This document shows positions 15,135 through 54,709 of a stretch of DNA of 64,000 nt, one piece after another; the first letter of the stretch is position 1, and each line of letters starts with the position of its first letter. Under the pieces are notes generated by a model. It had not been told where the DNA came from, made no database searches, and saw only the letters and a program-made list of their open reading frames with translations. The stretch lies in assembly GCA_018819305.1 (NCBI GenBank), contig JAHJQO010000014.1, positions 34,832-98,831 of the forward strand, read 5' to 3'. The stretch is from Nanobdellota archaeon. Its GTDB lineage: Archaea > Nanobdellota > Nanobdellia > Woesearchaeales > SM23-78. Position numbers and translations under genes: made by a program.

Positions 15135-15205
15135 AAACCATCAACCTCTTTTTTCTTGCTTAGTTTCTTTTTTTTCTTTTTGCCTGAATTATTTCTTAAT
15201 TATAA

Positions 15206-16207: not shown

Positions 16208-16282
16208 AATCCCACCATCCTTAACTATAAAATAATCAAATAAAGGATATTTATAAACATTATGGTATAATGCGGGTATATA

Positions 16283-17416
16283 TTGCCACTTGGGAAAGAA
16301 GCACAAAGTTTTTATAAAGAAATCACAAAAATTAGATTTATGCCTTCAATCATTGGACTGCCAGAGATGCTTAAAAATCTGAATAAGAAAAACAAAGATT
16401 TATTTAATCGGTTTTTCTCTGTCCAACGAAGCACAGGCCGCCTTGTTCTGCCAGAAAGCATGAAAAAATGGGCTGAAAATACTTTTGGACATCAAAACCA
16501 TGTGGAAGAGCAGGTCATTGTAAAGATTCTTGACAAATTAGTTTTTGAAGAAGCTCTTTATAATGAATTAAGAGCCAAAAGACCTATTCAAGCTAAAGAA
16601 AATGAGGATTTTGAAAAAATTATAAAGCAAAGCGCAGGAGGACCTTTTAGCAAGCCTTTGCAATTAACTCCTGAAGACATGTTTGGCAGAATCAAAGGCA
16701 AGCATTGCGTCACAGCAAGTAATGTTGCAAAATACGACGGCATGCATGGCCTGGTTGTATTTAAGAAGCATAATCCTCTTGATTTTAATCAAGAAGACCT
16801 TTATGATTACTTTGACACAGCTCTCAAATGGTTTGAAAAAGCCCATAAAACAAATGAAAAAGCTATTTATCCTTTTCTCTTATGGAACTGCTTGTGGCGC
16901 TCAGGAGCAAGCATTATCCACGGTCACATACAAATGGTGCTTGGAGAAGGTTTTCATTATGGTGATGTTGAAAAAGAAAACAAAGTGAGACTGGAATATC
17001 ACAAGAAGTATAAAAGTGATTATTTTAAGGATTTTTTTAGGATTCACAAACAAATTGGTCTTGGTTTTGAAGAAGAAGGACAGCAAATATTTATGAACAT
17101 TGTTCCAAGAGAAGACAAAGAAGTGACTATCATTGCAAAAAAACTTGACAGAAATTGCGTGCGTGCTATTTACAAGATCGCCAAATGCCTGACAGATGAT
17201 TTTGGAGTTGTCAGCTTTAATCTGGGTGTTGTTTTCCCTCCATTAAAAAAAATGCAGAACTGGAAAGACTTCCCTGTTATTGTCAGGATTGTTGACAGAG
17301 GCAAACTCAGCAGCAAAACAACAGACATTGGCGGCATGGAAATCTATGACATGGGTAATGTTATTTCTACTGACCCTTACAAAGTTTTTGAAAAGATAAA
17401 GAAAAGCTTTGCATAA
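16283..17416 (+). CDS. HIT-superfamily GalT-like nucleotidyltransferase/phosphorylase (tentative).
   Basis: The HxHxQ motif (IHGHIQMV) is at the position expected for GalT-branch HIT enzymes. It is ~370 aa and sits in a glycogen/NDP-sugar context. Confidence 0.4.
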   Translation: MPLGKEAQSFYKEITKIRFMPSIIGLPEMLKNLNKKNKDLFNRFFSVQRSTGRLVLPESMKKWAENTFGHQNHVEEQVIVKILDKLVFEEALYNELRAKRPIQAKENEDFEKIIKQSAGGPFSKPLQLTPEDMFGRIKGKHCVTASNVAKYDGMHGLVVFKKHNPLDFNQEDLYDYFDTALKWFEKAHKTNEKAIYPFLLWNCLWRSGASIIHGHIQMVLGEGFHYGDVEKENKVRLEYHKKYKSDYFKDFFRIHKQIGLGFEEEGQQIFMNIVPREDKEVTIIAKKLDRNCVRAIYKIAKCLTDDFGVVSFNLGVVFPPLKKMQNWKDFPVIVRIVDRGKLSSKTTDIGGMEIYDMGNVISTDPYKVFEKIKKSFA

Positions 17417-17625
17417 TAAGTTTATTTCTTCTTCGCGTTTACAAGAAGAAACTTACAACTAAAAGAATAATTAAGCCCTGTTGTCTGGACTTTATCATTT
17501 ATAACTCCTGATTCATATATTTTGAGCGCGTAGTTCTTTAAAATGTTTTTAAGGAAGGCTCTTGCTTCTTCTAATTCATAGTTAGGACTATTCTCTTTAA
17601 AATACAATGTCCCATCAGGTATTAC

Positions 17626-18168
17626 TCATTTAATATCTGTAGCAAAATCAAATATAATCTCACTGCATGGTTTCAAAACACGATTTATCTCAGAAAGTAT
17701 CTTCTTCACGAACTCTTTAGGAAAAAGATGCAATACGCCTGTGCAAAAAACTCCGTCAAAAGATTCGTCTTCAAATGGGAAACGATTAATAATATTAAAT
17801 ACTTTGATTTCTAATTTAGATCTCTGTTTTTTAGAAGTATTATGCCATAATTTGCTCAAAGCACTTTTATCAATGTCAGAAGCTACAACAAAATCTGCTT
17901 TTTTTAAGAGAATATTATTGTAACGCCCATCGCCCGCAGCTAAGTTTAACCATTTCCCAGAAAAAGATTTCTTATTCAAGAAATCCAGAGTCAGCTTTTC
18001 TCCTTCACCCCATATAGATTCTTTGCCTGTTTTAAAATAATTTAATCCTTCTGTAAAAACACATTTTTTCTCATCTGATTTGAAAGGTTCTGTGATTTTT
18101 TCCATATCATTCAAAATAAAGCAGAAAGTATAAATATTTTTCTCATTATTATTGTTTCTCCAAAGCAA
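17626..18168 (-). CDS. Class I SAM-dependent methyltransferase.
   Basis: Motif I-like LNLAAGDGRYN and an acidic motif II VVASDID. Overall Rossmann MTase pattern. Confidence 0.55.
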   Translation of the reverse strand: MLWRNNNNEKNIYTFCFILNDMEKITEPFKSDEKKCVFTEGLNYFKTGKESIWGEGEKLTLDFLNKKSFSGKWLNLAAGDGRYNNILLKKADFVVASDIDKSALSKLWHNTSKKQRSKLEIKVFNIINRFPFEDESFDGVFCTGVLHLFPKEFVKKILSEINRVLKPCSEIIFDFATDIK

Positions 18169-19927
18169 GGTTATGCGCCACTATGTAGAATTTTACAAAA
18201 TGTTTCCAGTCTGCAAGGTTGGACAGGTATTTGGCATTTATTTTGTTCTGAACTCTTTCTGAATGGTCAAGCATTGCATATTTATACATTATATCTGCCA
18301 GGTCTTTGACTGATTGTTCGTCTGTCATGCCAAAGCGTTTGAGAACATAAATACCTGCTTGTTCTTTTAACAGTTTGTTTTGTATGAATCTACCAAAGCC
18401 TGCTAAGTCACTTGTTAATGATGCGATTCCCATTGCTGCTGATTCAAGAGGAGTATATCCCCATGATTCATAGTAAGAGGGAAATATTCCAAAATGGCAG
18501 CCTGCCATTGCATCATAAGCAGGCAGGTCAAGCAAACCGTCATTTCCTGAGAGATAAACAGGGTAAATAATTATTTTTACTTTATCATCTGACCTGTTGT
18601 CAAGACCCTCTAACAATAATCCTTGAACAATTGCATCAGACTCTGCATTTGCAATATTATGAGTGAGTATAGGCGGGTTTCCTTTTCTCTGAAAATTAAG
18701 TATATTGCTTCTAACTTCTTTCATAAAGTCTTTTTCAAAAAAGCTTTCATTCATCTGAAGTTTTCGGGAAATAAAATCATCAATTATTTGCTGAAGAATC
18801 TGGTTTGATTTTGTATCTACTAAACTTTTTATGTGCCTGTAATAATTTTTGTTTTCTAAAAGCTCTACTTTCACACCATATGTTTTCATGGGCACCCAGA
18901 AAAACACACTTACAGTACGCAGTGTATCTTCTTTTTTTAGTTTTTCATTAAGAATACCTAATGCTTTGATAAGTATGTCCATTCCTTTATTGTGAAATTC
19001 ATATCTGCTTGCAAAAAAGAACATAAGATTATGCTCTAAATCAAAGGTATGATATGGGAAGAAATAATATTTTAGGAATTCTCGAAGAATATTCTTGCAT
19101 GTTACGTGCTTTATTGAAGTCTCTTCAATTGTAGGATAGTTCTCAATATCAATTCCATTTAACACCAAAACATCTGCTTTTTTACCCAGTATGTGTTCTG
19201 CTTCAATGCTTGTTATTTCACTCACAGTTGTAAATGCATCTGCATTATGCGCGCATGCCATTTCCATTGTGTGCTTGGCAAGCATATTGTATTCTCTGGC
19301 TTTTTGAATCGAATCAAAATTTCCCAGTTGATGATATAAATCAAAACCAGAACCTGCAAGCGTTCTGCCCAACATAGTTGCGTGAGTTGTAAAAACTGTT
19401 TTAACTCTTGATTTCTGCCTTTTAAGATATAAAAGCCCTGAACCACTTAGCCATTCATGAAAATGAGCCACAATTTTCATCTTAGGAATATCCTGGCTTA
19501 TGCTTTCTAATAATAATCCTGTACACCATGACCAGACAACTGGCTCGTCAAAATCAGAAGGGGCAAAAAGCGAGTCAACTTGAAAAGATTCCCACATCTT
19601 TCCCTTAATATCATTTGTTTTATTATACATGCTTTGGAAATCAATAAGAATAACTTTAGGATCTCCTCGAATCTCCCAGGTTCCATAATGGCAAATAATC
19701 CCCTGGCTTTTTAATTCAAGGAACGCTCCTTTAAGAAAATCAGGAACTTCTTCTTTTCTTAATTCAACGTCTGCTTTTTCCTGAAAATAAGGCCCGATTA
19801 AGAAATAATTAGTATAATAATCAAGCATGTGAGGAGCTTTTGTCTTGATAACAGTATTTATCCCTCCTGTCTTATTGCACACTTCCCAGGATACTTCAAA
19901 AACATAATCTGCATTTGGTCTTATCAC
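18149..19927 (-). CDS. Glycogen (starch) synthase, GT3 family (eukaryote-type).
   Basis: N-terminal FEVSWEVCNKTGGINTVIKTKA closely parallels the GT3 glycogen synthase signature (EVAWEVANKVGGIYTV). It is ~590 aa, GT-B length. Confidence 0.6.
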   Translation of the reverse strand: MIRPNADYVFEVSWEVCNKTGGINTVIKTKAPHMLDYYTNYFLIGPYFQEKADVELRKEEVPDFLKGAFLELKSQGIICHYGTWEIRGDPKVILIDFQSMYNKTNDIKGKMWESFQVDSLFAPSDFDEPVVWSWCTGLLLESISQDIPKMKIVAHFHEWLSGSGLLYLKRQKSRVKTVFTTHATMLGRTLAGSGFDLYHQLGNFDSIQKAREYNMLAKHTMEMACAHNADAFTTVSEITSIEAEHILGKKADVLVLNGIDIENYPTIEETSIKHVTCKNILREFLKYYFFPYHTFDLEHNLMFFFASRYEFHNKGMDILIKALGILNEKLKKEDTLRTVSVFFWVPMKTYGVKVELLENKNYYRHIKSLVDTKSNQILQQIIDDFISRKLQMNESFFEKDFMKEVRSNILNFQRKGNPPILTHNIANAESDAIVQGLLLEGLDNRSDDKVKIIIYPVYLSGNDGLLDLPAYDAMAGCHFGIFPSYYESWGYTPLESAAMGIASLTSDLAGFGRFIQNKLLKEQAGIYVLKRFGMTDEQSVKDLADIMYKYAMLDHSERVQNKINAKYLSNLADWKHFVKFYIVAHNLALEKQ

Positions 19928-20002
19928 TCTGCTTACCTCACATCTTTTTTTATCTCAATCTCTTCTTTTTCAGTTTATCTTAAAGTTAAATCATCTTAAA
20001 AG

Positions 20003-20650
20003 TTAAATCGCACCAATTGAATTATATATGATGCCCAGCAATATGAAGCCAAAAATCAACCCTAAAACAAAACCATAAATGAATTCCTTTACAATAAACT
20101 TATGATGTTCATGTTTATGGATTTCATGTTCATGATGCCTTAAATCGCTTAATTTCGGTTCATGCTCAGACTTGTGTTCTTTTTCACGCAGAACTTCTTT
20201 TGCTTCACCAACCATATCTTTTAATTCCTGCTCTGTTAGTATTTTTTCTTCATGCTTAGGATACTCAAAAATCTTAATCTCGTCAGGCATGATAACTTTT
20301 TGATTTTCTTCCGTAGGTTTATGTTCCTGATTTTTATGCTCAGCAAGGATGTGTTCCTTATGAAGTTCATGATGTTTCTGCTCGTAGTGCTGATGCACTA
20401 AGTCCTTATTCTTTAGAAATTCTTCTAAAATAATAATCAAGCCTTCTCTTTCAGAAACTTCTCTCATGCTTTGCGCAAGAACTGACTCTCCAAACACCCC
20501 TTCAATCCAGTTTGCAAAATCATTTCTGTTGATGTTTACATGATGTCCAAATGTTGATTCATCCATGTGTGAAAGTTCATTTTTTAATTCTTCAATGCTT
20601 TTTATGCTTCCTCCTCCTTCAAAGAAGAACCATTTATCTTGACTAATCAT
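20003..20650 (-). CDS. Membrane-anchored protein with the conserved WF...NDFANWIE domain, a His-rich repetitive segment and a C-terminal TM.
   Basis: The domain is shared with 2627..2914 and 20719..21102. H/E/K-rich tract: HEHKSEHEPK..HHEHEIHKHEHHK. C-terminal hydrophobic helix: FVLGLIFGFILLGIIY. Confidence 0.4.
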   Translation of the reverse strand: MISQDKWFFFEGGGSIKSIEELKNELSHMDESTFGHHVNINRNDFANWIEGVFGESVLAQSMREVSEREGLIIILEEFLKNKDLVHQHYEQKHHELHKEHILAEHKNQEHKPTEENQKVIMPDEIKIFEYPKHEEKILTEQELKDMVGEAKEVLREKEHKSEHEPKLSDLRHHEHEIHKHEHHKFIVKEFIYGFVLGLIFGFILLGIIYNSIGAI

Positions 20651-20718
20651 ACTTGACCACCTCTTTTTTCAGTTTTGATTTGAATTAATTTGAAAATTTA
20701 AATTTTGAAAACAAAAAA

Positions 20719-21102
20719 TTACCACAACTTGTGTGTTATGTGCTTGTAAATCACAAGCTGCATGTGCTTCTTCTCCTTTGCTCCTGCAAGTTTTTGTGCC
20801 AGTTCCATATCCTTAAAAATGTCTTCTATCCAATTTGCAAAGTCATTTTTGTCAGATGTTACATGATGGTCAAACACATGTTCCTCAATCTCATCCATCA
20901 CATCTGCCAGTTCTTTGACATTTTTCACAGGCTGGCCATTGCACAGAACAAAGTAATTCATTTCTGGCGCATCTTTGCAAATATCTGGTTTTTTCTGTAT
21001 TGTCGTCTTTGTGTCAGTTGTCTGTGTTGTTGGTTTCTTTTTGCCAGTTGTTTTCTTTTTAGGAGGTCGTCCTCTTTTTCTTTTCTTTGTTGTTGTAGGC
21101 AT
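20719..21102 (-). CDS. Small protein with an N-terminal AT-hook-like basic tail (KRKRGRPPKKK) plus the conserved WF...NDFANWIE domain.
   Basis: The GRP core of the AT-hook is flanked by K/R residues. The C-terminal domain aligns with 20003..20650 and 2627..2914. Confidence 0.4.
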   Translation of the reverse strand: MPTTTKKRKRGRPPKKKTTGKKKPTTQTTDTKTTIQKKPDICKDAPEMNYFVLCNGQPVKNVKELADVMDEIEEHVFDHHVTSDKNDFANWIEDIFKDMELAQKLAGAKEKKHMQLVIYKHITHKLW

Positions 21103-21143
21103 ACTCTTTTACCTCATCTCAATTTTTTCAATTTTTTAATAAA

Positions 21144-22463
21144 CTACTCAATTTTTGACAAGCTAATTTCAGGATCAATAAGTGTTAAACTGGGAGTCTC
21201 GCTTATCATATTGTGTGAAAACTCCACTTGTGTTGTTTGAGCATAAGTAAGCTTCTTGTCTTCACTTTGCTTTTGTTTTTGCAACTCTCGCACTCTGATA
21301 ATAATATCATTCAGCACATTCATAAAAGTGATAAAACCTTCATAAGGCGTATCATAGGGATTAAAGTATTTGTGAACATCTCCATCAGAAAACCACTTGA
21401 TGCACATGTAATAGAAGTGGTCACTTGTTGTGAGCTTTCTCCAGTCACTTAATAATGCAGGGTCGCCTGTTTTTTTTACAATAGTCCCAATCTTATAGAG
21501 TTCTTGAGCAGCAGAGTTCTGCAAAGAATTTCCAAGCCATGCACTAAGGTCTCTTTCAACATCGGCCCAAGACATAAAATTATGAATATCAAGCTCTGCC
21601 ACAGAAGGATATTTCTCAGCCGCCTCACTCACTGTTACAAAATCATTATCAGGATGTTTTAAGATTTCTTCAGGCAGTTTTTCCATGAATTCAAAGATTC
21701 CTGTATCTTCCCACTGGTGCTCTCCAAAAGTCTCATAATCCATGAATAAATTGATTAAATGCCCATTTCCATTATTTTCAGATATCCAGCGTCCATATTT
21801 CTCAACTGTTAATGGATGTTCGTTCCATCCTTTGTTGCTAAATCTAAATGCAACATCATCACTAAGCTTGTAGTTCTTTAGCAGAAGTTTCATGTTTTCT
21901 GCTGTTTTAGGAGTATAAATAAAATTTGGGCTTTTCCAGCCGAGAATATGGTCTGCGCCTTCTGCTAAAATCGCATTATAACCCATGCCTTGCACAAAAT
22001 TTGCCAACTCATTATTATAAACCAACTCTGTATTTCTAAAAACTTTTGGCTCCTGATCAAACAAATCTTTTATTTTTTGCTTGTGCATTAATACCTGCTG
22101 TTTGAATTCTTGTTTATCAAAGAGAAATGATAATGAGTGATGATATGTTTCACTTAAAAACTCTACTTGGCCTGTTTTTGCCAGCTCTCTGAATGAATGA
22201 AGCACTTCAGGTGCGTATTTTTCAAATTGTTCAAGAGCAACCCCTGAAATTGAAAAACTCACTTTAAATTTTCCTTCGTGCCTCTTTATGAGTTTGAGAA
22301 GCAGTTTGTTTGTTGGCAAATAGCATTTTTTAGCTACTTTTTTTATTATTTCCTTGTTTTTTTCTTCATCAAAATAATCTGAATTATTACCTATGTCAAA
22401 TACACTGTATTTTTTCAGCCTAAAAGGCTGGTGTACTTGGAAATAAAAACAAACCGATACCAT
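21144..22463 (-). CDS. Glycoside hydrolase family 57 (alpha-amylase/4-alpha-glucanotransferase-like).
   Basis: N-terminal CFYFQVHQPFR (GH57 HQP motif) and Glu-containing conserved blocks (DYETFGEHQWE). Confidence 0.6.
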   Translation of the reverse strand: MVSVCFYFQVHQPFRLKKYSVFDIGNNSDYFDEEKNKEIIKKVAKKCYLPTNKLLLKLIKRHEGKFKVSFSISGVALEQFEKYAPEVLHSFRELAKTGQVEFLSETYHHSLSFLFDKQEFKQQVLMHKQKIKDLFDQEPKVFRNTELVYNNELANFVQGMGYNAILAEGADHILGWKSPNFIYTPKTAENMKLLLKNYKLSDDVAFRFSNKGWNEHPLTVEKYGRWISENNGNGHLINLFMDYETFGEHQWEDTGIFEFMEKLPEEILKHPDNDFVTVSEAAEKYPSVAELDIHNFMSWADVERDLSAWLGNSLQNSAAQELYKIGTIVKKTGDPALLSDWRKLTTSDHFYYMCIKWFSDGDVHKYFNPYDTPYEGFITFMNVLNDIIIRVRELQKQKQSEDKKLTYAQTTQVEFSHNMISETPSLTLIDPEISLSKIE

Positions 22464-22511
22464 ATTTAATTGTCACCTTTTTTATTGTCTTGTTTATTAT
22501 TTATTATCATA

Positions 22512-23753
22512 TTACCGGTTACCTGCTAGTTCTTTGTAAATATCCATGCATTTTTGTGCGGGTCCTTCCCAAGTCATGTTTCTGACTTCCAAGGCTCCGT
22601 GTTGTTTGATTTGCTGATGTAATGACCTGTAATGTAATAGTGCTAATGTTTTTGCTGCGATATCATTCACATCCCAAAAGTCAACCTTAAGTACATGGTT
22701 AAGGACTTCTGAAACTCCTGACTGTCTTGATATTATTGCTGGTGTTTCCTGCCACATTGCTTCAAGCGGCACCAATCCAAATGGTTCTGATACAGATGGC
22801 ATAACAAACACATCAGCAATCTTGTTAAGCTTTGCAACTTCATCTCGGGATACAAAGCCAGGAAATATGAATTTATTAGCAATACCAATCTCTGCTACGC
22901 GCTCTATCATTCTAGGAAGCATGTCTCCTGTGCCAGCCATTATGAACTTAACATTTTGGTCTTTTTCAAGCACTTTTCTGGCTGCTTCAACAAAATAATC
23001 AGGTCCTTTTTGTAGAGTTATCCTACCAATAAAAAGCACGATTTTGTCTGTTTCTTTTATTTTGCTTGCATCATGGTCTGCGGTTTCATCCATCATCTCT
23101 GCTGCGTTGTGCACAACCCTAATTTTTTCTTCTGGCACACCATAATTGTTCATAAGCCGTTGTTTTACGAAATTACTGACAACAATCACTAAATCTGCTG
23201 CATGCATGCCTTCGCGCTCCATATCATACACTCTCTGGTTAACTCCTGTGCCTCCGGTTTTGTCAAACTCAGTTATATGAACATGAACAATCAATGGCTT
23301 ACCAGATGCTTTTTTTGCTGCTATTGCAGCTGGAAATGTCCAATGATCATGCGCATGAATCACATCAAAATCTTCATTAAATGCAATTAACCTTACTTTT
23401 CTTGCAAATAGCTGAGCTTCTTGAAATACATTTGGACCATACAATGATTTTGAGCGGTCTTTGGATGAAAGTGAAGCAAGGTATTTCTGATAATCTTCCC
23501 CATAACTCTCAGGTGTTGTATAAGCTCCAATCAGTGTTTCAACTTCTTTTAGCTTAAATCTCAGCTTTGGAAATAAGTGGTCTGCTACCATTATTTTCAT
23601 GTAGCCGCTGCATATCATCCGCGGACCAAATGGCATGACATAAGTCACATCAACTCCATGATCACATAGAGCTTTGGTCAGATGATAGCAAACCATTCCT
23701 ACTCCGCCTGCAAAAAAAGGCGGCAATTCCCATCCTAACATTAATACTTTCAA
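22512..23753 (-). CDS. GT-B glycosyltransferase (GT4/GT5, archaeal glycogen-synthase-like).
   Basis: N-terminal MKVLMLGWELPPFFAGGVGMV (the GGLG-type motif of GT5/GT4). The C-terminal half has an E-x7-E-like region (EPFGLVPLEAM). Confidence 0.6.
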   Translation of the reverse strand: MKVLMLGWELPPFFAGGVGMVCYHLTKALCDHGVDVTYVMPFGPRMICSGYMKIMVADHLFPKLRFKLKEVETLIGAYTTPESYGEDYQKYLASLSSKDRSKSLYGPNVFQEAQLFARKVRLIAFNEDFDVIHAHDHWTFPAAIAAKKASGKPLIVHVHITEFDKTGGTGVNQRVYDMEREGMHAADLVIVVSNFVKQRLMNNYGVPEEKIRVVHNAAEMMDETADHDASKIKETDKIVLFIGRITLQKGPDYFVEAARKVLEKDQNVKFIMAGTGDMLPRMIERVAEIGIANKFIFPGFVSRDEVAKLNKIADVFVMPSVSEPFGLVPLEAMWQETPAIISRQSGVSEVLNHVLKVDFWDVNDIAAKTLALLHYRSLHQQIKQHGALEVRNMTWEGPAQKCMDIYKELAGNR

Positions 23754-26193: not shown

Positions 26194-29100
26194 TTATTTC
26201 TTACCAAACCCAAACAAAGTCTGTTGGCTGCTGCCAGCAAGTATGTCATCAAAGGATTGGCCATAGAATCCAAGAACACTGTCTGCCAATGGCTTGATTT
26301 GCTTTTCAATATAATGCTCATAATCTATTTTATGCTTTTGCTTCTGGATTGGCTCAGGACCTGCTGTTGTCATCACATATTCAATCAAAGTTCCATCTAA
26401 TTCTTTGCCAAGCAGCCGCGCTGCTTTGACATGCGGAGGAGTTGTTTTTGTGTATTCTGCAACACCTTTTCTAATTGATTTTCTATAGATTAAGGATTTA
26501 TCATGCTTGCCATTTTTGATTTCTTCAACAATATTTTTTACATATTCTGCTACTTCTTGTTTTTTGAAAATCCTGTCCAAGAGTTCCTGCTGAAATTGTT
26601 TTGCAATATCTGTCCAGTCTTTGCGCACAAATTCAAGCCCTACAAAATCCATCTTTGTCTTGCCTTTTTCATCTTCAATAAAGCCTGCATATCTTTTTTT
26701 GCTGCCTTTTTCAGAATGCCTGGCCATTGGCATTAAGAATCTCTTGTAAACTTTTTCAAATTCCAGCTCAAGATAGTTTTTTCTTTTGTAATCCTTTTGC
26801 GTATGCTCTTCAAAAAACTTGTTCATTATTCTTGCTATTTTGTTGCCTATTTTTTGCGCATCAGCATAGTTATTGACATTGAGATTTACAAAAATTGAAT
26901 CAGTGTTATGAACTAGAACTCCATTAGCAAAAAATCTATGGTTGTCTTTTACTTCCAAATCATAAACATAATCTTTGTATAATATTTCTTCAACCCTTTT
27001 AACACTCGAGATATCAAAATCATACTTCCTTATGGTTCTCTTTTGCTTTGAATTGACAGGTATTTTTTTTAACCTTTTGTTTTTTCTATTTAAAACAAAA
27101 CCAACGAATTTATTATATGAAAGGATATCCCTTACTACGATATGCAAAGAAATTGTATCGCTCTTCACAGAACAGTACTTATTTTTATTTGTTTCAGAGA
27201 AAAACGAACAAGGAATACTTATGAGCTGCAATAATTTCTGAATTTGATTAATAAATTCCTTGTTTGTGTTTGTGAATCTAACTATGGGTGAACCATTCCT
27301 AATCATGACTGTGCCGTCAGCAGAAAAAAGCCCCCTTAAAAAGCTTGCAATATTTTCATTTGATTCATTGAAAATAAATTCAGGAATGCATTTATGTTTA
27401 TCACGTAAAAGATTTTCATTAAAAAAATAAACTATTTTAGTACCATTAATACAAATATCTCCTTTAGGCTTTTTCCAATAATTTCTTATCCAACCTTGAC
27501 TCTTTAGTGGAACAATAACTTTTCTAATAATCTCATTCTGATCCAAGCCTGCTGCTAAATGGAGATAGTAATTTTTCTTTTTCATAGAATCAAAAGAACC
27601 GTCACCAATAAACAACCCCATAAATTCATAAAACTCTTTAGAAAAACCTTTAGTAGTTATCTTTTGATGGGGAACCGATTTTATCGAAACAACACTTTTA
27701 ACATTTTTTCCTAACTCGTTAGGTTTTACTTCAACTAAACGATCCATATCAGAAAGTTTTGCTTTTTTTGATTTGTTAATATATCCAATCAAAGAATGAT
27801 CTTCAGTTACATCAACAAACCAAGAATTTGTAAGATATACCCTGTGCATTTTTTTATTAACTTTGTGTCGCATAACATAAGAAATTGGCTTAAAAACTGA
27901 TTTACCAGAAGAATCAATTGTTAAAACACTGTAAGGAATATTCAAAGAATACGACTTTCCATCAGATGATCTTTTATCAACTTTAAAAAAAATATCTGAA
28001 ATGTTTTTATACAAAACATTACCGTTCGCATCTTGAACAATAACTTCGCTATCAGCAGCAACACTGTCTCCATATATCACTTCATAGCCCATATCTTTGA
28101 CTTTCTGCGCAGTCATCTTTATGAAATGCTGGCCAAAATAAGTGATTGCATTTGAAATATCTCTATTGTGAAACCTGCAGTTGTTGTTGCCTAGCACACC
28201 ATAGAATGAATTCATTAGAATTTTTATTGCGAATCTTGCAAATTCATTTTTTTCTTTTCTTGCTTTTTCTCTTTGCGACCAAAGCCTTTGAATAATTATT
28301 GGCAACAGTCCATCCTGATTCTTAAAACAAGCTCCATTTGGTGCTTTAACAAGATTTTTTCCTTTACAGTCAGCTACAAAGCTCAATGGGTCAATATTAA
28401 ATGTCCTTATTATGCTCGGATACAGACTTTTGAAGTCGCACACAATCACATAATCATATATTCCTGGTTTTGGCTCCATTACAAACCCTCCTAAGCCAGG
28501 TGCTTCATCTGGATTATATGTGGATGTTCCTGCAACATAGTCTTTTTTTCTAAGTTCTTTAAGATAAAGCGAGTCAAGACTTGCAATACTTGCCCTGACA
28601 CGGTCCAATGGCATTCCTGTCAGCAATGAACGCTGGATTGAAAGGCTAAGTGCTGTGCTTTTGTAAAGAATATCATAAGCTAGTTTTGAATCCAGCAGAT
28701 TATAGTCCACCAAAAGCTGCTGGTCTTTTTTATATGCATTTTCAATTTGCTCAAATCTGTTTTTGCCTGTGAAAATCTTTGATGTTCCTAAGAAATGCTG
28801 TGCTGCTGTTTCCAGTTTATAATTTGGCAGTCCAATAAAATTGTTTTTTAGCACCTGAATGCCGTCAAGTATCATTCTGCCTGGAAAGTCAGCTCTTGAA
28901 TCCTGGAAAAATGAATTAAATATTCTTAATGAGCATTTCATGTTTCCTCTGCCCAGCAAGAAAGGTATGTTGTATTTACTAAATTTGTTTTCTAAAAATT
29001 TTAAGTCAAAGTCTATAAGATTCCATCCTGTGATAATGTCGGGATTGACTTTTAGCAATAATTCCTGGAATTTGAAAATCAATTCTTTTTCATCTGCCAC

Positions 29101-29673
29101 ACTGATTGCTTTTTTGAGCTTTTTGTCAGATATAATTATTACTTTTTTAAAATCATCAGTGTAAAGAGAAACAGCATAAATTTGCTTGTGAGTGATGTCG
29201 GTTTCTATGTCTATGGATAAAACTTTTAGGTTTTTAGGTGTATAATCTGCTGGCTTGAGCTCAGGATCTAAATAAACCCTGTCAATTTCTTCTCCTTTTG
29301 CATAATTACCCTCAATTTCAAGGCTTCCCTGAAACCTGTGGTCATACATAAACCTGTATTCAAAGCGAATGTCTGCTTCATAACAGGAAATATTTTGTTC
29401 CAAGAGTTTGTTTCTCAATGGTTTTATTTGTGGAGGAACATGCATTATTATTTTTACAACAGGCTCTTCATCAAAAGTCTTGTATTTGGTTTCCTTGTAA
29501 TCAAACTTTTCAATTTCCAGGGCTGTGTTTAAATCTGATTGTTTTATAAAAAAATAAGGCCTGAACTCATTGATTGTTAAGAAAGATTCTCCATTCTGCA
29601 ATCTGCCAAATAGATATACATAAGCTTTACCATCCTTTATCTTATAAGTAGGATGAACAATAAACCCCTTCAT
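26194..29673 (-). CDS. polB: Family B DNA polymerase (archaeal PolB) interrupted by one intein.
   Basis: Exo I LSIDIETD, motif A DFKSLYPSII, motif B KILMNSFYGVLG, motif C split as VIYGD | intein | TDSIFV. Extein total ~772 aa. Confidence 0.9.
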   Translation of the reverse strand: MKGFIVHPTYKIKDGKAYVYLFGRLQNGESFLTINEFRPYFFIKQSDLNTALEIEKFDYKETKYKTFDEEPVVKIIMHVPPQIKPLRNKLLEQNISCYEADIRFEYRFMYDHRFQGSLEIEGNYAKGEEIDRVYLDPELKPADYTPKNLKVLSIDIETDITHKQIYAVSLYTDDFKKVIIISDKKLKKAISVADEKELIFKFQELLLKVNPDIITGWNLIDFDLKFLENKFSKYNIPFLLGRGNMKCSLRIFNSFFQDSRADFPGRMILDGIQVLKNNFIGLPNYKLETAAQHFLGTSKIFTGKNRFEQIENAYKKDQQLLVDYNLLDSKLAYDILYKSTALSLSIQRSLLTGMPLDRVRASIASLDSLYLKELRKKDYVAGTSTYNPDEAPGLGGFVMEPKPGIYDYVIVCDFKSLYPSIIRTFNIDPLSFVADCKGKNLVKAPNGACFKNQDGLLPIIIQRLWSQREKARKEKNEFARFAIKILMNSFYGVLGNNNCRFHNRDISNAITYFGQHFIKMTAQKVKDMGYEVIYGDSVAADSEVIVQDANGNVLYKNISDIFFKVDKRSSDGKSYSLNIPYSVLTIDSSGKSVFKPISYVMRHKVNKKMHRVYLTNSWFVDVTEDHSLIGYINKSKKAKLSDMDRLVEVKPNELGKNVKSVVSIKSVPHQKITTKGFSKEFYEFMGLFIGDGSFDSMKKKNYYLHLAAGLDQNEIIRKVIVPLKSQGWIRNYWKKPKGDICINGTKIVYFFNENLLRDKHKCIPEFIFNESNENIASFLRGLFSADGTVMIRNGSPIVRFTNTNKEFINQIQKLLQLISIPCSFFSETNKNKYCSVKSDTISLHIVVRDILSYNKFVGFVLNRKNKRLKKIPVNSKQKRTIRKYDFDISSVKRVEEILYKDYVYDLEVKDNHRFFANGVLVHNTDSIFVNLNVNNYADAQKIGNKIARIMNKFFEEHTQKDYKRKNYLELEFEKVYKRFLMPMARHSEKGSKKRYAGFIEDEKGKTKMDFVGLEFVRKDWTDIAKQFQQELLDRIFKKQEVAEYVKNIVEEIKNGKHDKSLIYRKSIRKGVAEYTKTTPPHVKAARLLGKELDGTLIEYVMTTAGPEPIQKQKHKIDYEHYIEKQIKPLADSVLGFYGQSFDDILAGSSQQTLFGFGKK
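26905..28065 (-). mobile_element. Intein (387 aa) with a LAGLIDADG homing endonuclease domain, inserted in polymerase motif C (YGD|TDS, the pol-c site).
   Basis: The intein starts with Ser (S537) right after YGD and ends ...VLVHN, followed by +1 Thr (TDS). The two dodecapeptides are EFMGLFIGDGSF and ASFLRGLFSADGTV. Confidence 0.8.
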
Positions 29674-29779: not shown

Positions 29780-30409
29780 TTATTTCTTGTTTTCAAACTG
29801 CTGTTTCATAGCCTCTCTAAACATTCTTCCCATTGCACCACTCATCATTGCTCCTTTAGTCAGATTATGCATCTCAATTACAAGCTTAGGATTTTTCTTT
29901 TTTTTGCCTATTTCAGATACATAATCACAAATATTGCTAATTGTTCTTTTAGCCTCAACCTCTTTTTCATTAAAGGTATATAACTCAAGGTCTTTAAGAT
30001 AACCAAAGAACTCTTTTTTTTCATTATCATTTAGATTTGCTTTGTGTCTTATTATTTTACCAACTGTCTGGCCTGCTTTTATACCTACATAAGTAGCTAT
30101 TCCTGTTTCAGCAGCAAGAGTTAAGTAAGATAAGGAATTCAGATCTTGATTTGTGTTGACAACACTCACCAAAAAAGCGTTTCCCATTGAAACTGCAGCT
30201 TCTAATTTAGAACGAGCAGAATTTAATTTATCATATTTTTTAATATCATTCTTATCACATTCTTCTGTCTTGTCGCAGTCTTCACATCCTTTATTTGCAT
30301 ATTCTGCTAAATCATGACTAAAACCAATTTTTCTGTCAGTATAAAATCCAAAAGCAAAACCACTGGCAAAACCATAAGCAGCGCCTCCAATTATTCTTTC
30401 AAGAGTCAT
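29780..30409 (-). CDS. Hypothetical protein, last gene of the E1/JAMM/AAA operon.
   Basis: Gly-rich hydrophobic N-terminus (GGAAYGFASGFAFGF) and Cys cluster CEDCDKTEEC. The start overlaps the upstream gene stop. Confidence 0.35.
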   Translation of the reverse strand: MTLERIIGGAAYGFASGFAFGFYTDRKIGFSHDLAEYANKGCEDCDKTEECDKNDIKKYDKLNSARSKLEAAVSMGNAFLVSVVNTNQDLNSLSYLTLAAETGIATYVGIKAGQTVGKIIRHKANLNDNEKKEFFGYLKDLELYTFNEKEVEAKRTISNICDYVSEIGKKKKNPKLVIEMHNLTKGAMMSGAMGRMFREAMKQQFENKK

Positions 30410-32031
30410 TTTTTAACCTCCATAAAAACCTTGTCAAGCTTTTCTGAAATCATGTTCAAAATAGGCGTTCTTGCTAAGTATTCTCCTACTTTTCCTTTGC
30501 TTTCAAAAGATTCTTTTATCTGCTCAAATGAATTGTTTCCTACTTTTTTCTTGGGATTTATTAATTCTACATGATTCCTCTGAATATCAAAAATATAAGG
30601 AGTTCCATGACGATCTCCTGTAAAATGATGAAACTCAATATCTATCTTTCCACCTCCATCTCTTTTAACATAACCCCAGCTACCATTTTTAGTATGAGTA
30701 TAATTATCTCCGCTCTTTACAATCTTAACTTTAACACCTGCTCTAAATACATCTTCTTGCTTTGCCTCTTCTAACAAGAACTGTGTGCAAAGATTCTCAT
30801 AACCATTATGATTCAACTTTTTAGGGAAAGTTTGATTATCCTTATTTATTGCAATTTCTAAATCACTAATTTTAAGACATTTAGTATCACCTTTAAAATT
30901 AATTTCCCATGTGGCTCCTGAATTGCATGTGCAAGAGTCAGTTTTTCCAATAATTCCTTTATACTCATCATAGTACTCACTGCCTTTTTTTACTCTTACT
31001 TTCAGGTTTTCCTTATGATCCTTTATTTTTGCTGGTTTAAAATAATAACCTGCTTCAAATTTAAACTCTGTTTGGTTAAGCTTCAATTCTGCTTGATTAG
31101 AATACTCTGATATCACTGCCTTAAATAGAGCTGCAAAATCTGGTTCTGCCCTATCATGCGCTCTCTTATGTTTATTTAATTCGTTATAAACATCATTCTT
31201 TGCAAATATACTGCGAACTATTTTTGGGTCATCAACAAGTTCAGATAAACATGCTGCCTGTTCATAAACATTCATATCATGACCAAACAGCTCAATCATG
31301 GCATTTTCAACTAATCCTTTGTTAACCTTTTCTTCATTTTTTATTGATTCCAATAATTTAAAATAGTTAGAGCATTCCCCTGCAAAGAACAGTTCAACTC
31401 CTTTGTACAGCATTTCATTGCTTGTTAATAATTTATCCTGTGATAACTCTAATAATCTATTTTTCACATCATCATTTCGTGCAGATGAAACGAGTTGAGA
31501 ATAGACTATTGTATTTGACAAATCATCAGGAGTATCCAACTTATCTACTTGTGAAGCAAGGAATGGTATTTTTTCTAAGAGATTCTGCGCAGCCATAGAT
31601 GAAATTACATTAGTACCTATGTACTGTAATACATGGGGCTCTATTTTTGCCTTTTTCACCTTATCTTTTTTTATATTTTTTGTATAATCCTTTAGGAGGT
31701 GAAGAGGTGATGTTTCTGGAGCTAATCTTGAAATTAAAGAATCATGGTTAGGTGTATATTTTAATCTTATGAAGTCTGAAAAAGCTTTTTCAGGATCCTT
31801 GGCAATCATTTGCTTTGCTTTTTTCTTATCAATGTCATTTGCAAAATAATATGCTAAACTTGTATCTGGGAGATTTGTTCCTGTTAACTCATCAAAACCG
31901 AATCTGGGTTGCTGTGCCTCCAGAATCTTTGATATTTTTCTAACTGGATTCATATCTGCTGCTAAAACAACTATTTCTTCAAGGGCTTCTTCTTCATTTA
32001 ACTCTTCTAACAAATCAATTTCATCATTCAT
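30406..32031 (-). CDS. Hypothetical 541-aa protein with an acidic N-terminus and C-terminal small beta-rich repeats (possible SH3/KOW-like) plus a CxC..C..C motif.
   Basis: Operon position. The repeated V(R/K)VK..KSG.. blocks and SCTCNSG...KCLK...LCTQ were seen directly in the sequence. Confidence 0.4.
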   Translation of the reverse strand: MNDEIDLLEELNEEEALEEIVVLAADMNPVRKISKILEAQQPRFGFDELTGTNLPDTSLAYYFANDIDKKKAKQMIAKDPEKAFSDFIRLKYTPNHDSLISRLAPETSPLHLLKDYTKNIKKDKVKKAKIEPHVLQYIGTNVISSMAAQNLLEKIPFLASQVDKLDTPDDLSNTIVYSQLVSSARNDDVKNRLLELSQDKLLTSNEMLYKGVELFFAGECSNYFKLLESIKNEEKVNKGLVENAMIELFGHDMNVYEQAACLSELVDDPKIVRSIFAKNDVYNELNKHKRAHDRAEPDFAALFKAVISEYSNQAELKLNQTEFKFEAGYYFKPAKIKDHKENLKVRVKKGSEYYDEYKGIIGKTDSCTCNSGATWEINFKGDTKCLKISDLEIAINKDNQTFPKKLNHNGYENLCTQFLLEEAKQEDVFRAGVKVKIVKSGDNYTHTKNGSWGYVKRDGGGKIDIEFHHFTGDRHGTPYIFDIQRNHVELINPKKKVGNNSFEQIKESFESKGKVGEYLARTPILNMISEKLDKVFMEVKK

Positions 32032-32043
32032 TTTACATCCTCA

Positions 32044-33558
32044 TTACATCCTCTTTCCATCCAAATAAACTTCTTTTATTATTTGGCCATCTACTTCTAT
32101 TTCCTTGATTTGAACTCTTTTTTTGTCAGGAAGCTCTAATGACTTTGCTTTTTTTGTATGACAATCACAAATAGATTCTAATTCACTCACTCCTCCTCTG
32201 GATTCAAAGTCAGAGATGTACTTGATTTCGCCATTTACAGGGCTGCCATAAATATCTGGTCTTAGCGCACACATGGCTTCCCCTATCATCAAAGCAGTGG
32301 CTATCTGGTTGATCATAATAACAGAAGGGTTGGGTGCTTGTATACAGCTAGTTCTCCTGATAATCTCAGCTCTGATAGCAAGGTCTGAAAGATTAATCTG
32401 GCAGTCAAAACATGAAGTTTCTCCTTGCTTATAAGCTAGAACTGTTGCTGCCCTATAATCTGTGCCTCCACTAATAATAGGGATGTTGTGTTTTTTTGCA
32501 TAATTATGAAGAATAGCCTTTGTGTAAAAACTATCCACTCCGTCAAAGATTAAATCATATTTTGTATCGAATTTGGATTTTTCTGTGAACTTATCAACAA
32601 TTGCATTTATCTGTGTTTTTCCTTTTGAAATCTTTTGCATAGTCTCTGCTATTCTTTCTGCCTTTAACTTGCCGACTGCATCATAAAAACTTACCTGCCT
32701 GTTGAGATTATGGTCTTCAACAACATCATAATCCATAACGTCAATTCTTCTCGGGCTTAAATTAGATATTGCTGCTGGTCCTAACAAGCAGCCCAGTGCG
32801 CCAGCTCCAACCATGAGAATATTCTTATCTTTGAAAGCATTAGCTATTACTTTTATCTCCTTGTCTGAAATATGACCAAAACGTTTATTTGATTCTAAAT
32901 TATAATTATAAATTATGTTTAAAGGCTCATCTTTTCTCATTAACAACTTCTTGACTTCCTCAGCCACCATTCCGCCTAGTTCTAAAGATACAAAATCACC
33001 TTGCTTTTTTCCTTCAAACATAGGCATTAACATAGCCAGGTTGTTTTCTCCGGCACCTGAAAAAGCAACTTTTCCATTATACTTATCAGCAGAAGAGCTA
33101 ATTATTGGAACGCCTTTTTTAAGATGATAATCTAAAACATGACTCTTTGATATCTTATCATTGGTTGCATCAACTATAACATGGCTTCCTTCTAAAAAAT
33201 ACTGAGCAGCAATAGTTGATAAATCAGAGTTTATTCCAATAACATTTACCTCTGGATTAATCTTCTTTAATGCTTGCTCAAGGCTTTGAGCTCTGGATTT
33301 TCCTTTTAGAGGCAAGTCAAGAAGCATATCATTTGCTGTTCCTTTGGCAGAATCAATTATTCTTATAGTGCCTACTCCTAAAGCTGCTAATGGCATGGCA
33401 ATGTACCTGGCAAGAACATCAGAGCCAATTATAGTAACAATTCCATTCTTCAGTTTCTCCTGATTCCAGTCCTTAATTAAGAGTTGCCTGTCATACCTGT
33501 GAATATTTTTTTCAATTTTTTCTTCAATATCTTCTAAAATGTCTTTTTTATATTTCAT
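32044..33558 (-). CDS. E1-like enzyme with tandem ThiF/MoeB-type Rossmann domains (a degenerate N-terminal domain plus a catalytic C-terminal adenylation domain) and C-terminal Cys motifs.
   Basis: Domain 1 (IIGSDVLARYIAMPLAALGVGTIRIIDSAKGTAND) lacks GxGxxG and the NLNRQ motif. Domain 2 has MVGAGALGC...VMDYDVVEDHNLNRQ. CxxC (SCFDC) and ICDC follow. Confidence 0.65.
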   Translation of the reverse strand: MKYKKDILEDIEEKIEKNIHRYDRQLLIKDWNQEKLKNGIVTIIGSDVLARYIAMPLAALGVGTIRIIDSAKGTANDMLLDLPLKGKSRAQSLEQALKKINPEVNVIGINSDLSTIAAQYFLEGSHVIVDATNDKISKSHVLDYHLKKGVPIISSSADKYNGKVAFSGAGENNLAMLMPMFEGKKQGDFVSLELGGMVAEEVKKLLMRKDEPLNIIYNYNLESNKRFGHISDKEIKVIANAFKDKNILMVGAGALGCLLGPAAISNLSPRRIDVMDYDVVEDHNLNRQVSFYDAVGKLKAERIAETMQKISKGKTQINAIVDKFTEKSKFDTKYDLIFDGVDSFYTKAILHNYAKKHNIPIISGGTDYRAATVLAYKQGETSCFDCQINLSDLAIRAEIIRRTSCIQAPNPSVIMINQIATALMIGEAMCALRPDIYGSPVNGEIKYISDFESRGGVSELESICDCHTKKAKSLELPDKKRVQIKEIEVDGQIIKEVYLDGKRM

Positions 33559-38258: not shown

Positions 38259-38860
38259 TTTCTCCCCCCTATTATTTTGTTTATTTTTTTGTTTATGATT
38301 TTATTTTTCATTATTCTTCTTTAGTTTTGATTCTTAATTTCCCCTATGTCTTCTTAATATATAGGATAGTGAATTGATAATATATACTTAACGTACATAC
38401 AGGCATTAAAACATGTTTTGTACATACTATTTTGACAATTTTTCATTTTCATCCGTTCATATTTTTAATCACTGTAAAGTTATTAATTATTTAAATATTT
38501 GTTGTTGATATTTCTACAACAGATATTTTTCTAGTCCTTGGCTTTCTGGACGATGCAGTTTGTAGTGTTTTTGCAAACCTTCTGCCCACTTAGCTTCTGG
38601 TAGTAATATTTCGTATCTCATCTTCCTATGATAACTACAAAGTAGTGACGATATATAAAACATTGTAGAAGAATTTTTGGATATACGCGTAAAGATGCTA
38701 CTTTTTTTTAGTTATAATCAATAAATTAATATAATGGTTTTATAAATGAAAAAATAATTTATTACGCTTAATAACTCTGCTAGGTTTTGTTTTTACAACT
38801 AAATAAAATCACATCTTATTTAAGAATAACTTTATAAAACTCAAAAAAGAACTAAATATC

Positions 38861-38956
38861 ATGACACGTATATGTATAGTTAAGAAGGAGAAATGCAGCC
38901 CTGTGAGCTGTGGAAATTTTCTTTGCATTAGAGTGTGCCCTCTGAATCGCAAGTAA
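38861..38956 (+). pseudogene. Orphan 31-codon fragment encoding an intact ABCE1 N-terminal 4Fe-4S motif (MTRICIVKKEKCSPVSCGNFLCIRVCPLNRK*).
   Basis: It matches the archaeal ABCE1 N-terminus (M.RIA.ID.DKC.P.KCG.FLCERVCPVNR). It is followed by a stop and sits in a different frame from the downstream genes. Confidence 0.6.
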
Positions 38957-39074
38957 TCGTATTGGTTGGGGAAAAATTTAAATAATGTGACCTTTTTCTG
39001 ATATCATCAAAGCTTTTTATTCCAAAAACTTCATCATTTTTTAGCAATTTAAACATTTTTTAAAGAGTGCAAAA

Positions 39075-40448
39075 ATGTTAAATTACAAAAATGACTCCTT
39101 ATTATTGAACAAAGAAACTGCTAACGATTTAATTAGAAATAAGAATACTGACTTCATTTTTATCGATAAAGAAAAGAAAATATTGAATTTATTCTCGGCT
39201 TTTGTAAAAAAAGATGACTTCATTAAGAAAGATGAACTATGTCAACCGCTACAAAAAACCATTTATGTGAAAATAACTCAAAAACTCTTAAATAAAATTA
39301 AAAACAGATTCAAAGATAAAAAAGAAATTATAATAATTCTAGAAAAATATACTGATCGAAGAATTGTCACAAAAGAAGGGGTTAATAGATGGTTTAACAC
39401 CAGAATAATTCCTTTTATTCTTTTAAGAATATTAAGCAAAGATAATGAAGAATTTGCAGAATTCATAAAAGAAATTGATTACATTACTGATTTCTTAAAT
39501 AAAAGCAAATTTTACTGTCCGAAAACATTAGATGAATTATTAACACCAAAAATATTTTATCTCTGTGGATGCTCAGTTGGAGACGGTCATATAGATAAAA
39601 CAGGCAAAAGATGGGTTTTGGTGGATGGAAGCTCTAACAAAGAAAGATTACTTCAATCTCACAAATTCGTAGTTAACTTATCAAATTTACTTGAAAATTT
39701 AGGGATGAAATCAAGTATAAAATTAAAGAAAACAAAATGTATTTTAACAGCAAATAACAAACCTTTTTGTAGGTTTCTAAACTTCTTCTTTGGCTTGCCT
39801 TATGGAAAGAAAAAAGAAGTTGTATTAAGAAAACCAATTATACTAAATCAGAGTAAGAAAGATTTAGAAAAATACTTCTGGAGAGGATGTTTTGACACAG
39901 ACGGGAGTGTGAATAAAGATGGTACAATAGATTTATGTTCTTCAGATAATAATCTACTAACTGAATGTGAATCATATTTGGAAAACATAGGTATTAAAAC
40001 AAAAAAAAACAATATATTAATTACCATTAATATTCAAGAACTAAAGAAATTCACACAAATCGGTTTTGCTCATCAACGAAAACAAAAAGAATTCTTAAAA
40101 ATACTTAGACGAGGATTAAAACAGGAAAAAATGAATATAAGAGACAGTGAAAAGGTAGATACAAATTTATCAAGGATACATGATTTAATAAGAATCGATG
40201 GCAACTACAGAATAAGAATTCACAGAAGAAACCTTAAAAAGAGCGATATTGATGAAGAGGGAATAAGAAAAATCATTAAAGAAATGTTTGGATATGATCT
40301 AAAAGAAACAAGGAAATTACTTTATTTCAAATCCAAAAAAGTATATGAATACTTAAATAAGCGTCTTAAATCAGAGTCATATTGGAAACCTATAAATACT
40401 CAAGAAGAAGCCCAATTATTAGAAGAATGGAATGAGGTTTGGAATTAA
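39075..40448 (+). mobile_element. Free-standing LAGLIDADG homing endonuclease gene (457 aa). Its stop abuts the ABCE1 start (TAAATG).
   Basis: The two dodecapeptide motifs are IFYLCGCSVGDGHI and YFWRGCFDTDGSV, ~110 aa apart. No intein splicing blocks (no N-terminal C/S, no terminal HN). Confidence 0.7.
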
Positions 40449-54606: not shown

Positions 54607-54709
54607 AGCGGGAGGGGAGACTCGAACTCCCGATCAGTGGGTTGCAGCCACTTGCCTTAGCCGCTTGGCCTTAGGAAAAAACCTCAAAAATGATAGTCTT
54701 TACTCCCGC
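54607..54709 (-). tRNA. tRNA-Cys (anticodon GCA) with a ~31-nt non-canonical intervening sequence between nt 9 and the D-stem (approx. 54670..54700). The mature length is ~72 nt; CCA is not encoded.
   Basis: Acceptor GCGGGAG/CTCCCGC (7 bp), U8A9, D-arm GCCA-AGCGGCTA-AGGC, anticodon arm AGTGG-CTGCAAC-CCACT (anticodon GCA), variable GATC, T-arm GGGAG-TTCGAGT-CTCCC, discriminator T. The 5' acceptor strand is separated from the D-arm by 31 nt. Confidence 0.6.

Follow-up and report, generated by a model that had tools for sequence, protein, structure and literature searches.

A probable single-chain, pseudo-dimeric E1 encoded with candidate ubiquitin-like, E2-like, JAMM and AAA+ genes in a Nanobdellota archaeon

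We analyzed 64,000 nucleotides of the Nanobdellota archaeon assembly GCA_018819305.1 (contig JAHJQO010000014.1, positions 34,832 to 98,831 of the forward strand), a stretch with ~ 33% GC from a DPANN archaeon that we refer to as the window. It contains a minus-strand operon of seven tightly packed genes with intergenic spacings of -4 to 64 nt (Table 1). In the direction of transcription these encode an AAA+ ATPase, a small candidate ubiquitin-like (Ubl) modifier, an E2-like protein, a JAMM metallopeptidase, a ThiF-family protein and two proteins without assigned function. The ThiF-family protein, which is the focus here, has 100% identity to the NCBI entry ‘ThiF family adenylyltransferase [Nanoarchaeota archaeon]’. 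We consider it very likely that the gene encodes the E1 of a Ubl conjugation system and that the protein works as an intramolecular pseudo-dimer, in which an inactive adenylation domain (IAD) is joined to an active adenylation domain (AAD).

Table 1. Genes of the operon and sequence features of the E1, in window coordinates.
Feature	Position	Strand	Remarks
E1 gene, 504 aa	32044..33558	minus	IAD (aa 1-232) + AAD (aa 233-504)
IAD, aa 1-232	32863..33558	minus	IAD-only profile; lost catalytic residues
R21-Y-D-R24-Q25 motif at the IAD N-terminus	33484..33498	minus	aligns to MoeB RYNRQ
AAD, aa 233-504, including stop codon	32044..32862	minus	MoeB E 2.8e-11
ATP-binding glycine motif G251-A-G253-A-L-G256	32791..32808	minus	78/78
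Nucleotide/phosphate-binding box D276-Y-D278...N284-L-N-R287-Q288	32695..32733	minus	invariant
C383-x-x-C386 zinc pair, short helical crossover loop and candidate catalytic Cys405	32344..32412	minus	
C464-x-C466, second zinc pair	32161..32169	minus	41 and 40 of 78 members
JAMM/MPN+ metallopeptidase, 453 aa	33555..34916	minus	4-nt overlap with E1 start
E2-like protein, 449 aa	34918..36267	minus	UBC-like C-terminal domain aa ~284-449, H352-P-F...C366
Candidate modifier (Ubl) precursor, 142 aa	36332..36760	minus	C-terminal end ...ARQEG-A-KKSIDYMLR
AAA+ ATPase, Mpa/ARC-like, 494 aa	36774..38258	minus	13 nt upstream of Ubl gene
p541, 541 aa, without assigned function	30406..32031	minus	12 nt downstream of E1
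209-aa protein	29780..30409	minus	4-nt overlap with p541; possibly the last gene of the operon

A preliminary description of the gene, made from the sequence alone, had read it as a pseudo-dimeric E1 in a single chain, its N-terminal ThiF domain degenerate and its C-terminal one active, and profiles, conservation and a predicted structure bear this out. The strings quoted there (IIGSDVLARY, IIDSAKGTAND, MVGAGALGC, DYDVVEDHNLNRQ, SCFDC and ICDC) are all present in the 504-aa translation. Pfam ThiF (PF00899) matches the protein in two stretches (E 7.6e-44, above the gathering threshold), and each half has its own matches to NCBIfam MoeB/ThiF models, at residues 16-166 and at 243-423. A PDB sequence search pairs residues 16-164 with Uba4/ThiF and residues 238-403 with MoeB/SAE2. 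The halves are also homologous to each other (profile-profile comparison with hhalign, probability 99.5%, E 2.8e-22, 18% identity). In the alignment between them, the AAD residues G253, D278, R287, Q288 and D342 are replaced in the IAD by D47, A71, D77, M78 and N133, respectively.

An IAD-only profile matches MoeB (2.5e-23), ThiF (1e-20) and Uba4 (2e-16), and the best match outside the E1s is shikimate-dehydrogenase-like (3e-4). With MoeB and ThiF this far ahead, the suggestion that the N-terminal half might fit an unrelated Rossmann family better falls away. This half had also been said to lack the GxGxxG and NLNRQ motifs. The glycine motif is indeed degenerate, with its second glycine in 24 of the 78 E1 family members used for conservation counts throughout (orthologs, each from a different species), but the first glycine, G45, is kept in 76. 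The complete adenylation motif set (GxGxxG, D, NLxRQ, K, D) does not occur in the N-terminal domain. Conserved in the IAD are G61 and the near-invariant N-terminal motif, with R21 in 70, R24 in 74 and Q25 in 75 of the members. All 78 members carry the AAD residues G251, G253, G256, D276, D278, N284, R287, Q288, K299 and D342. The adenylation residues ascribed to the C-terminal half in the preliminary description thus stand, but the four cysteines that it assigned to zinc are found in only ~ 41/78.

The candidate catalytic residue Cys405, conserved in 77/78, falls in sequence alignments at the position of the crossover-loop cysteine of MoeB, ThiF and Uba4. A check for an inserted catalytic-cysteine (CYS) domain, which the preliminary description had recommended, revealed none: the segment from the CxxC to Cys405 measures 6-23 residues in 78/78 members and 16-23 in 73/78. 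In the window E1 this loop is 18 aa long and appears as a single helix (390-403) in the AlphaFold2 (AF2) model. FCCH and UFD domains were not found in the E1, nor was any insertion in the IAD. All that follows the AAD is a 25-aa beta-hairpin (E482-499 in the AF2 model), and most relatives are without it. The zinc cysteines (C383 in 44/78, C386 in 41/78) are carried by the archaeal members. The bacterial E1 clade (Desulfobacterota loci L055-L087, e.g., L004:10001-11287, where L numbers denote loci of the genomic context comparison) lacks all four and keeps the crossover-loop cysteine.

The AF2 model, built from a 93-sequence alignment, has a predicted local distance difference test (pLDDT) of 95.7 and a predicted template modeling score (pTM) of 0.94. 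In structure comparisons its closest relative is BilD, followed by single-domain MoeB (26.2) and SAE1 (25.7), whereas dehydrogenases reach at most 12.8. The top 50 Foldseek matches are all Uba1, UBA6 or UBA7. Because of these structural matches, the two halves are predicted to pack as they do in canonical E1s such as UBA1 and in BilD.

In an exhaustive hidden Markov model (HMM) search, 981 of 1.84 billion representatives clustered at 50% identity reached E<=1e-30; the family has up to this number of clusters, at least 150 of them full-length. None of the top 150 scores below 324 bits, and full-length, two-domain matches make up nearly all of them. Could the tandem nevertheless be an artifact of annotation or assembly, or a decaying duplicate in a protein that forms an ordinary homodimer through its C-terminal domain, so that the N-terminal half is irrelevant? 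In-frame TAA codons do interrupt the gene in 3/80 loci, one of them at the domain junction. However, a single open reading frame (ORF) of 400-560 aa is kept in 78 species-level genomes, full length prevails among the best cluster representatives, R21, R24, Q25, G45 and G61 are conserved in the IAD, and AF2 packs the halves confidently in the BilD/UBA1 arrangement. We therefore regard this explanation as extremely improbable. The three interrupted orthologs (L043:5917-7353, L086:2264-3508 and L047:43-1176) have TAG as their own stop, and the TAA of L086 lies exactly at the IAD/AAD junction. These TAAs could represent sequencing error or pseudogenization, or the protein may be naturally divided into two chains, like SAE1/SAE2.

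Among known E1s, both halves are closest in sequence to MoeB, ThiF, Uba4 and archaeal UbaA, with which the window E1 shares the crossover-loop cysteine, a CxxC...CxxC zinc site and an N-terminal RYxRQ arginine motif. Those enzymes are symmetric homodimers with two active sites, whereas the window E1 corresponds to fused protomers with one site dead. Their partners are sulfur-transfer enzymes, whereas the window E1 is accompanied by E2-like, JAMM and AAA+ proteins. The sequence affinity, the position of Cys405 and the GG motif of the small protein would fit a sulfur-carrier or cofactor adenylyltransferase of the MoeB/ThiF/UbaA type, in which a MoaD/ThiS-type protein is activated for thiocarboxylation instead of conjugation. 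Yet the window E1 falls far under all NCBIfam MoeB/ThiF equivalog cutoffs (124.7 vs 275.25 for TIGR02356 and 117.4 vs 266 for PRK05690) and that of the SAMP E1 UbaA (76.3 vs 450), there is no rhodanese domain, and the cassette includes no Moa or Thi genes. The link to an E2-like cysteine protein and a JAMM peptidase is invariable, often with an AAA+ ATPase as well, and the tail of the small protein must be cleaved. A sulfur-carrier function is accordingly very unlikely.

With the canonical E1s (Uba1/UBA6/UBA7, and the pairs SAE1-SAE2 and NAE1-UBA3) the window E1 has in common the pseudo-dimer of an inactive and an active adenylation domain. It is about half their size, lacks FCCH, SCCH/CYS and UFD domains, and carries its putative catalytic cysteine on the crossover loop. 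Its IAD is not particularly close to the eukaryotic ones, which score 31-35 bits vs 86 bits for MoeB.

The preliminary description counted BilD among prokaryotic E1s that are normally single-domain homodimers, which is wrong. In BilD, the E1 of bacterial Type II BilABCD operons, the IAD is N-terminal and the AAD C-terminal, a mobile CYS domain is present, and Arg9 of the IAD completes the single active site (Chambers et al., bioRxiv 10.1101/2023.09.26.559546; PDB 8TYZ). The E1s of Bub operons do form homodimers. With BilD published as a single-chain inactive/active E1, the fusion of IAD and AAD can no longer be regarded as exclusive to eukaryotes, whose hallmark the preliminary description took it to be. 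A prokaryotic single-chain IAD-AAD E1 is thus already established by BilD, and the window E1 is not the first. We considered membership of the window E1 in the BilD family and rejected it, as the sequence does not fit and a CYS domain is lacking. The window family has no inserted ~ 80-aa CYS domain, its cysteine being on a loop of 16-23 aa, and hhalign of BilD with the family aligns only the AAD, at a probability of 56%. The IAD-HMM gives the N-terminal half of BilD 4.1 bits (MoeB 86) and the AAD-HMM gives the C-terminal half 13.4 bits (MoeB 102). The IAD of the window family is readily recognized as ThiF, and both of its halves are MoeB-like.

We judged the origin of the two halves by comparing HMM bit scores, not from a tree. 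The IAD-HMM gives single-domain ThiF/MoeB proteins a median of 79 bits vs 43 bits for the AADs of the family itself, and the AAD-HMM gives single-domain proteins 107 bits vs 25 bits for the IADs. Each half is therefore closer to single-domain ThiF/MoeB than to the other half, so either the duplication is old or two paralogs were fused. These scores suggest that the fusion is old, and shared ancestry with the BilD or the eukaryotic fusion would be one possibility.

To what extent do the neighboring genes travel with the E1? The genomic context sample comprised seven loci found by exact-protein look-up and 80 loci with one genome per species (134 relatives, 185,579 genomes). Of the 80, ~ 49 are in metagenome-assembled genomes (MAGs) of DPANN or other archaea and ~ 31 are bacterial (mostly Desulfobacterota, with two Chloroflexota and one Patescibacteria). 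Local HMM scans gave the order Ubl-E2-like-JAB-E1 in archaea, and E1-Ubl-E2-like-AAA-JAB or Ubl-E2-like-AAA-JAB-E1 in bacteria. All three partners, Ubl, E2-like and JAB, adjoin the E1 in 43/78 non-redundant loci, and many of the remaining loci are on truncated contigs. An AAA+ gene is also present in 28 of these 43 (7 Mpa-like, 21 ClpB-D2-like). Four separate E1 loci occur in one Nanoarchaeia MAG, SMAG_U8169 (L014, L015, L024 and L029).

Neither the family nor the operon is described in the full-text literature that was searched; most subscription journals lay outside its scope, so surveys from the Aravind laboratory may cover them. Iyer et al. 2006 mention neither an AAA-linked nor a tandem E1. 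The Ubl-E2-JAMM-E1-AAA+ cassette is widespread and apparently undescribed so far.

The small Ubl candidate has 57 orthologs, which always adjoin the E2-like, JAB or E1 genes, and 52 of them bear a C-terminal GG motif (mostly QEGG) followed by a variable tail of 1-13 aa. One Nanoarchaeia candidate (L070:312-650) is tail-less, ending ...NGFQKVG, and the E2-like protein encoded next to it is without the HPF motif.

E2-like proteins range from 370 to 630 aa and share an invariant HPF...C motif, with Cys366 in the window protein. Their E2-like domain is closest to BubB. A relationship to the BilB-type E2 was rejected, as hhalign gave no match between BilB and the E2-like family. A third round of homology searching, based on an alignment, gained just one further sequence. 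Three paralogous E2-like genes surround one E1 in a Woesearchaeota locus (L007:5678-13193).

The 453-aa JAMM protein has an invariant E...HxH...S..D zinc motif (E63, H127, H129, S138, D141), and its profile matches the Caldiarchaeum Rpn11-like protein (7.9e-6), BRCC36 and PfJAMM1 in the PDB. The AAA+ protein scores 418.7 bits against the Mpa/ARC model TIGR03689, colinear over residues 5-492 and below the equivalog cutoff of 504.75. Residues 29-492 align with Mpa (PDB 5kwa), and the OB N-domain is present. This archaeal ATPase is thus closer to actinobacterial Mpa/ARC than to archaeal PAN models (195-216 bits). Orthologs of it adjoin the cassette in L005, L007, L009, L021, L027, L029, L030 and L037, and in the Desulfobacterota cassettes the AAA+ ATPase is ClpB-D2-like and the JAB protein has 266 aa.

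Most likely, the cassette is a Ubl conjugation system coupled to an unfoldase, for which we infer the following steps. The JAMM peptidase would trim the tail of the 142-aa precursor, exposing a C-terminal glycine, and the tag would then bind the AAD, where ATP-Mg would be held by G251/G253/G256, D276, R287/Q288, K299 and D342. Residue R24 of the IAD, and possibly R21, would complete the site, and the C-terminus of the tag would be adenylated. Cys405 on the crossover loop could then attack the adenylate to form an E1~tag thioester, a non-canonical E1 route (MoeB, Uba4, Uba5) that requires no separate CYS domain. The tag would be handed to Cys366 of the E2-like protein, whose large N-terminal region probably selects targets. 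Tagged proteins would finally be recognized and unfolded by the AAA+ ATPase of the operon, and the JAMM enzyme would recycle the tag. The BilC/BilA/BilD set provides a precedent both for a JAB peptidase that pre-processes a Ubl tailed beyond its glycine and for an IAD arginine that completes the active site.

Several observations weigh against this scheme. The window protein reads QEGA instead of QEGG (QEG-A + 9 aa), as do its three closest relatives (4/57 in all), and one further ortholog has VGAG; the mature C-terminus of the window tag is therefore uncertain. No match to a beta-grasp fold was found for the 142-aa protein, either with a profile against the PDB or when seven members were scanned with Pfam at E<=10. 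Local hhalign of the 57-sequence alignment with ubiquitin, MoaD, ThiS, SAMP1 and BilA likewise returned nothing. Loci L029, L030 and L037 are without a recognizable E2-like gene, and an AAA+ gene went undetected in some complete-looking loci, e.g., L003. The window AAA+ protein ends in ...DIRNII, with no penultimate tyrosine and no docking motif of the HbYX or GQYL type, which makes coupling to a protease speculative. Finally, the R21/R24 motif as an arginine finger for the AAD is a suggestion from conservation and analogy.

The cassette resembles Bil operons in its genes for a tailed Ubl candidate, an E2-like protein and a JAB peptidase, with the reservation that the Ubl fold is only presumed here. 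It differs from them in an E2 partner unrelated in sequence to BilB, in the frequent link to an AAA+ ATPase, and in hosts that are mainly DPANN archaea and Desulfobacterota. In the Bub (6E/DUF6527) system the E1, BubCD, is a JAB-E1 fusion that forms a homodimer, lacks a catalytic cysteine and makes Tyr/Ser oxyesters (PMC11601596). In the window family, both E1 and E2-like proteins carry an invariant cysteine, and the E1 is a pseudo-dimer. The Pup-Mpa/ARC and SAMP/PAN systems offer a parallel of another kind, a small tag with a C-terminal glycine motif encoded beside a proteasome-type AAA+ protein, and the window ATPase is Mpa-like over its full length. However, Pup is ligated by the glutamine-synthetase-like PafA, without E1 or E2. 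The SAMP E1, UbaA, is a single-domain homodimer that acts with no E2, and the ATPase of the window has no C-terminal docking motif.

So, is the cassette an antiviral defense? As in Bil-type immunity, the E1 and E2 could tag viral proteins that the AAA+ ATPase extracts or unfolds; this bears only on what the system is for and does not conflict with the E1 mechanism proposed above. The closest structural relative of the E1, BilD, belongs to an antiphage system, and the affinity of the E2-like domain to BubB points the same way. The spread over DPANN, Desulfobacterota, Chloroflexota and Patescibacteria is patchy, there are up to four copies per MAG and triplicated E2-like paralogs, and gene order and accessory domains vary. 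Patchiness, multiple copies per genome and paralog expansion favor a conflict system. On the other hand, no PADLOC model matches the system beyond the generic Cap2 E1 domain, no relatives occur among IMG/VR viral contigs, and the neighbors, in the window as at other loci, have housekeeping functions (PolB, ABC-ATPase, glycogen genes, eIF2-gamma, PCNA, DnaK). These neighbors and the absence from viral contigs favor proteostasis or regulation. We regard antiviral defense as possible but doubtful. A viral origin of the E1 was rejected on the same IMG/VR result. Identity with a known defense system was rejected on the PADLOC result, which is confined to matches with the generic Cap2 E1 domain and with AAA domains of IetA/TRIP13.

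Until BilD brought it into bacteria, the pairing of a dead with a live adenylation domain had long been regarded as a eukaryotic invention. The window E1 family adds a third, sequence-independent lineage of fused E1s that is abundant in archaea. It still resembles a fused MoeB dimer without a cysteine domain, and so provides a model in which fusion and asymmetry came first and the CYS domain later, and it permits a simple test of why asymmetry in E1s is advantageous. The tight link to Mpa-like or ClpB-like ATPases suggests that Ubl tagging is coupled to unfolding in these prokaryotes. For systems built on E1 and E2, such a coupling is to our knowledge undescribed except in eukaryotes and in a few archaeal cases of the SAMP/Urm1 type.

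A broader picture, plausible to us but tentative, is that DPANN archaea and Desulfobacterota have in common a large, undescribed five-part system (GG-tailed tag, E2-like protein, JAMM, E1 and AAA+). Its minimal pseudo-dimeric E1 would be an architectural intermediate between homodimeric MoeB-type enzymes and BilD or canonical eukaryotic E1s, having arisen independently or before insertion of the CYS domain, and the system would tag and unfold proteins in prokaryotes by a pathway comparable to ubiquitin-Cdc48/proteasome. Should the defense role apply instead, Bil/Bub-type immunity would extend to DPANN archaea.

Two genes of the operon lie downstream of the E1. The position of p541 is kept in the closest relatives (L006, L008 and L009, 31-43% identity), L052 and L018 have matches to its C-terminus in ORFs beyond the E1 on the downstream side, and it has no match in Pfam, NCBIfam or PADLOC. 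The 209-aa protein has no family matches in Pfam or NCBIfam and only one weak match elsewhere among the loci compared. A small, probably SH3-like module, ‘YYYGG...PLGSKG’, recurs in p541 (aa 429-498), at the N-terminus of L005:6768-8390, in L029:8312-8995 and L030:7264-8981, and at the C-terminus of L001:7152-10004. In L029 and L030, the module proteins stand in the place of the E2-like gene between JAB and E1.

The genes flanking the operon in the window are ordinary chromosomal ones, among them ABC ATPases and glutamine synthetase. A family-B DNA polymerase gene (26194-29673) is split by an intein with a LAGLIDADG endonuclease, and a free-standing LAGLIDADG ORF (39075-40448) lies upstream of the operon, past an AT-rich spacer (38259-39074). 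A glycogen cluster (13281-23753), notable in a DPANN genome, encodes amylo-1,6-glucosidase, sugar nucleotidyltransferase, glycogen synthase, GH57 and GT4 proteins. ARAGORN calls no tRNA at 54615-54670, where Rfam reports a partial one (34.4 bits, model positions 9-63), and this stretch may be a degenerate, split or intron-containing tRNA.

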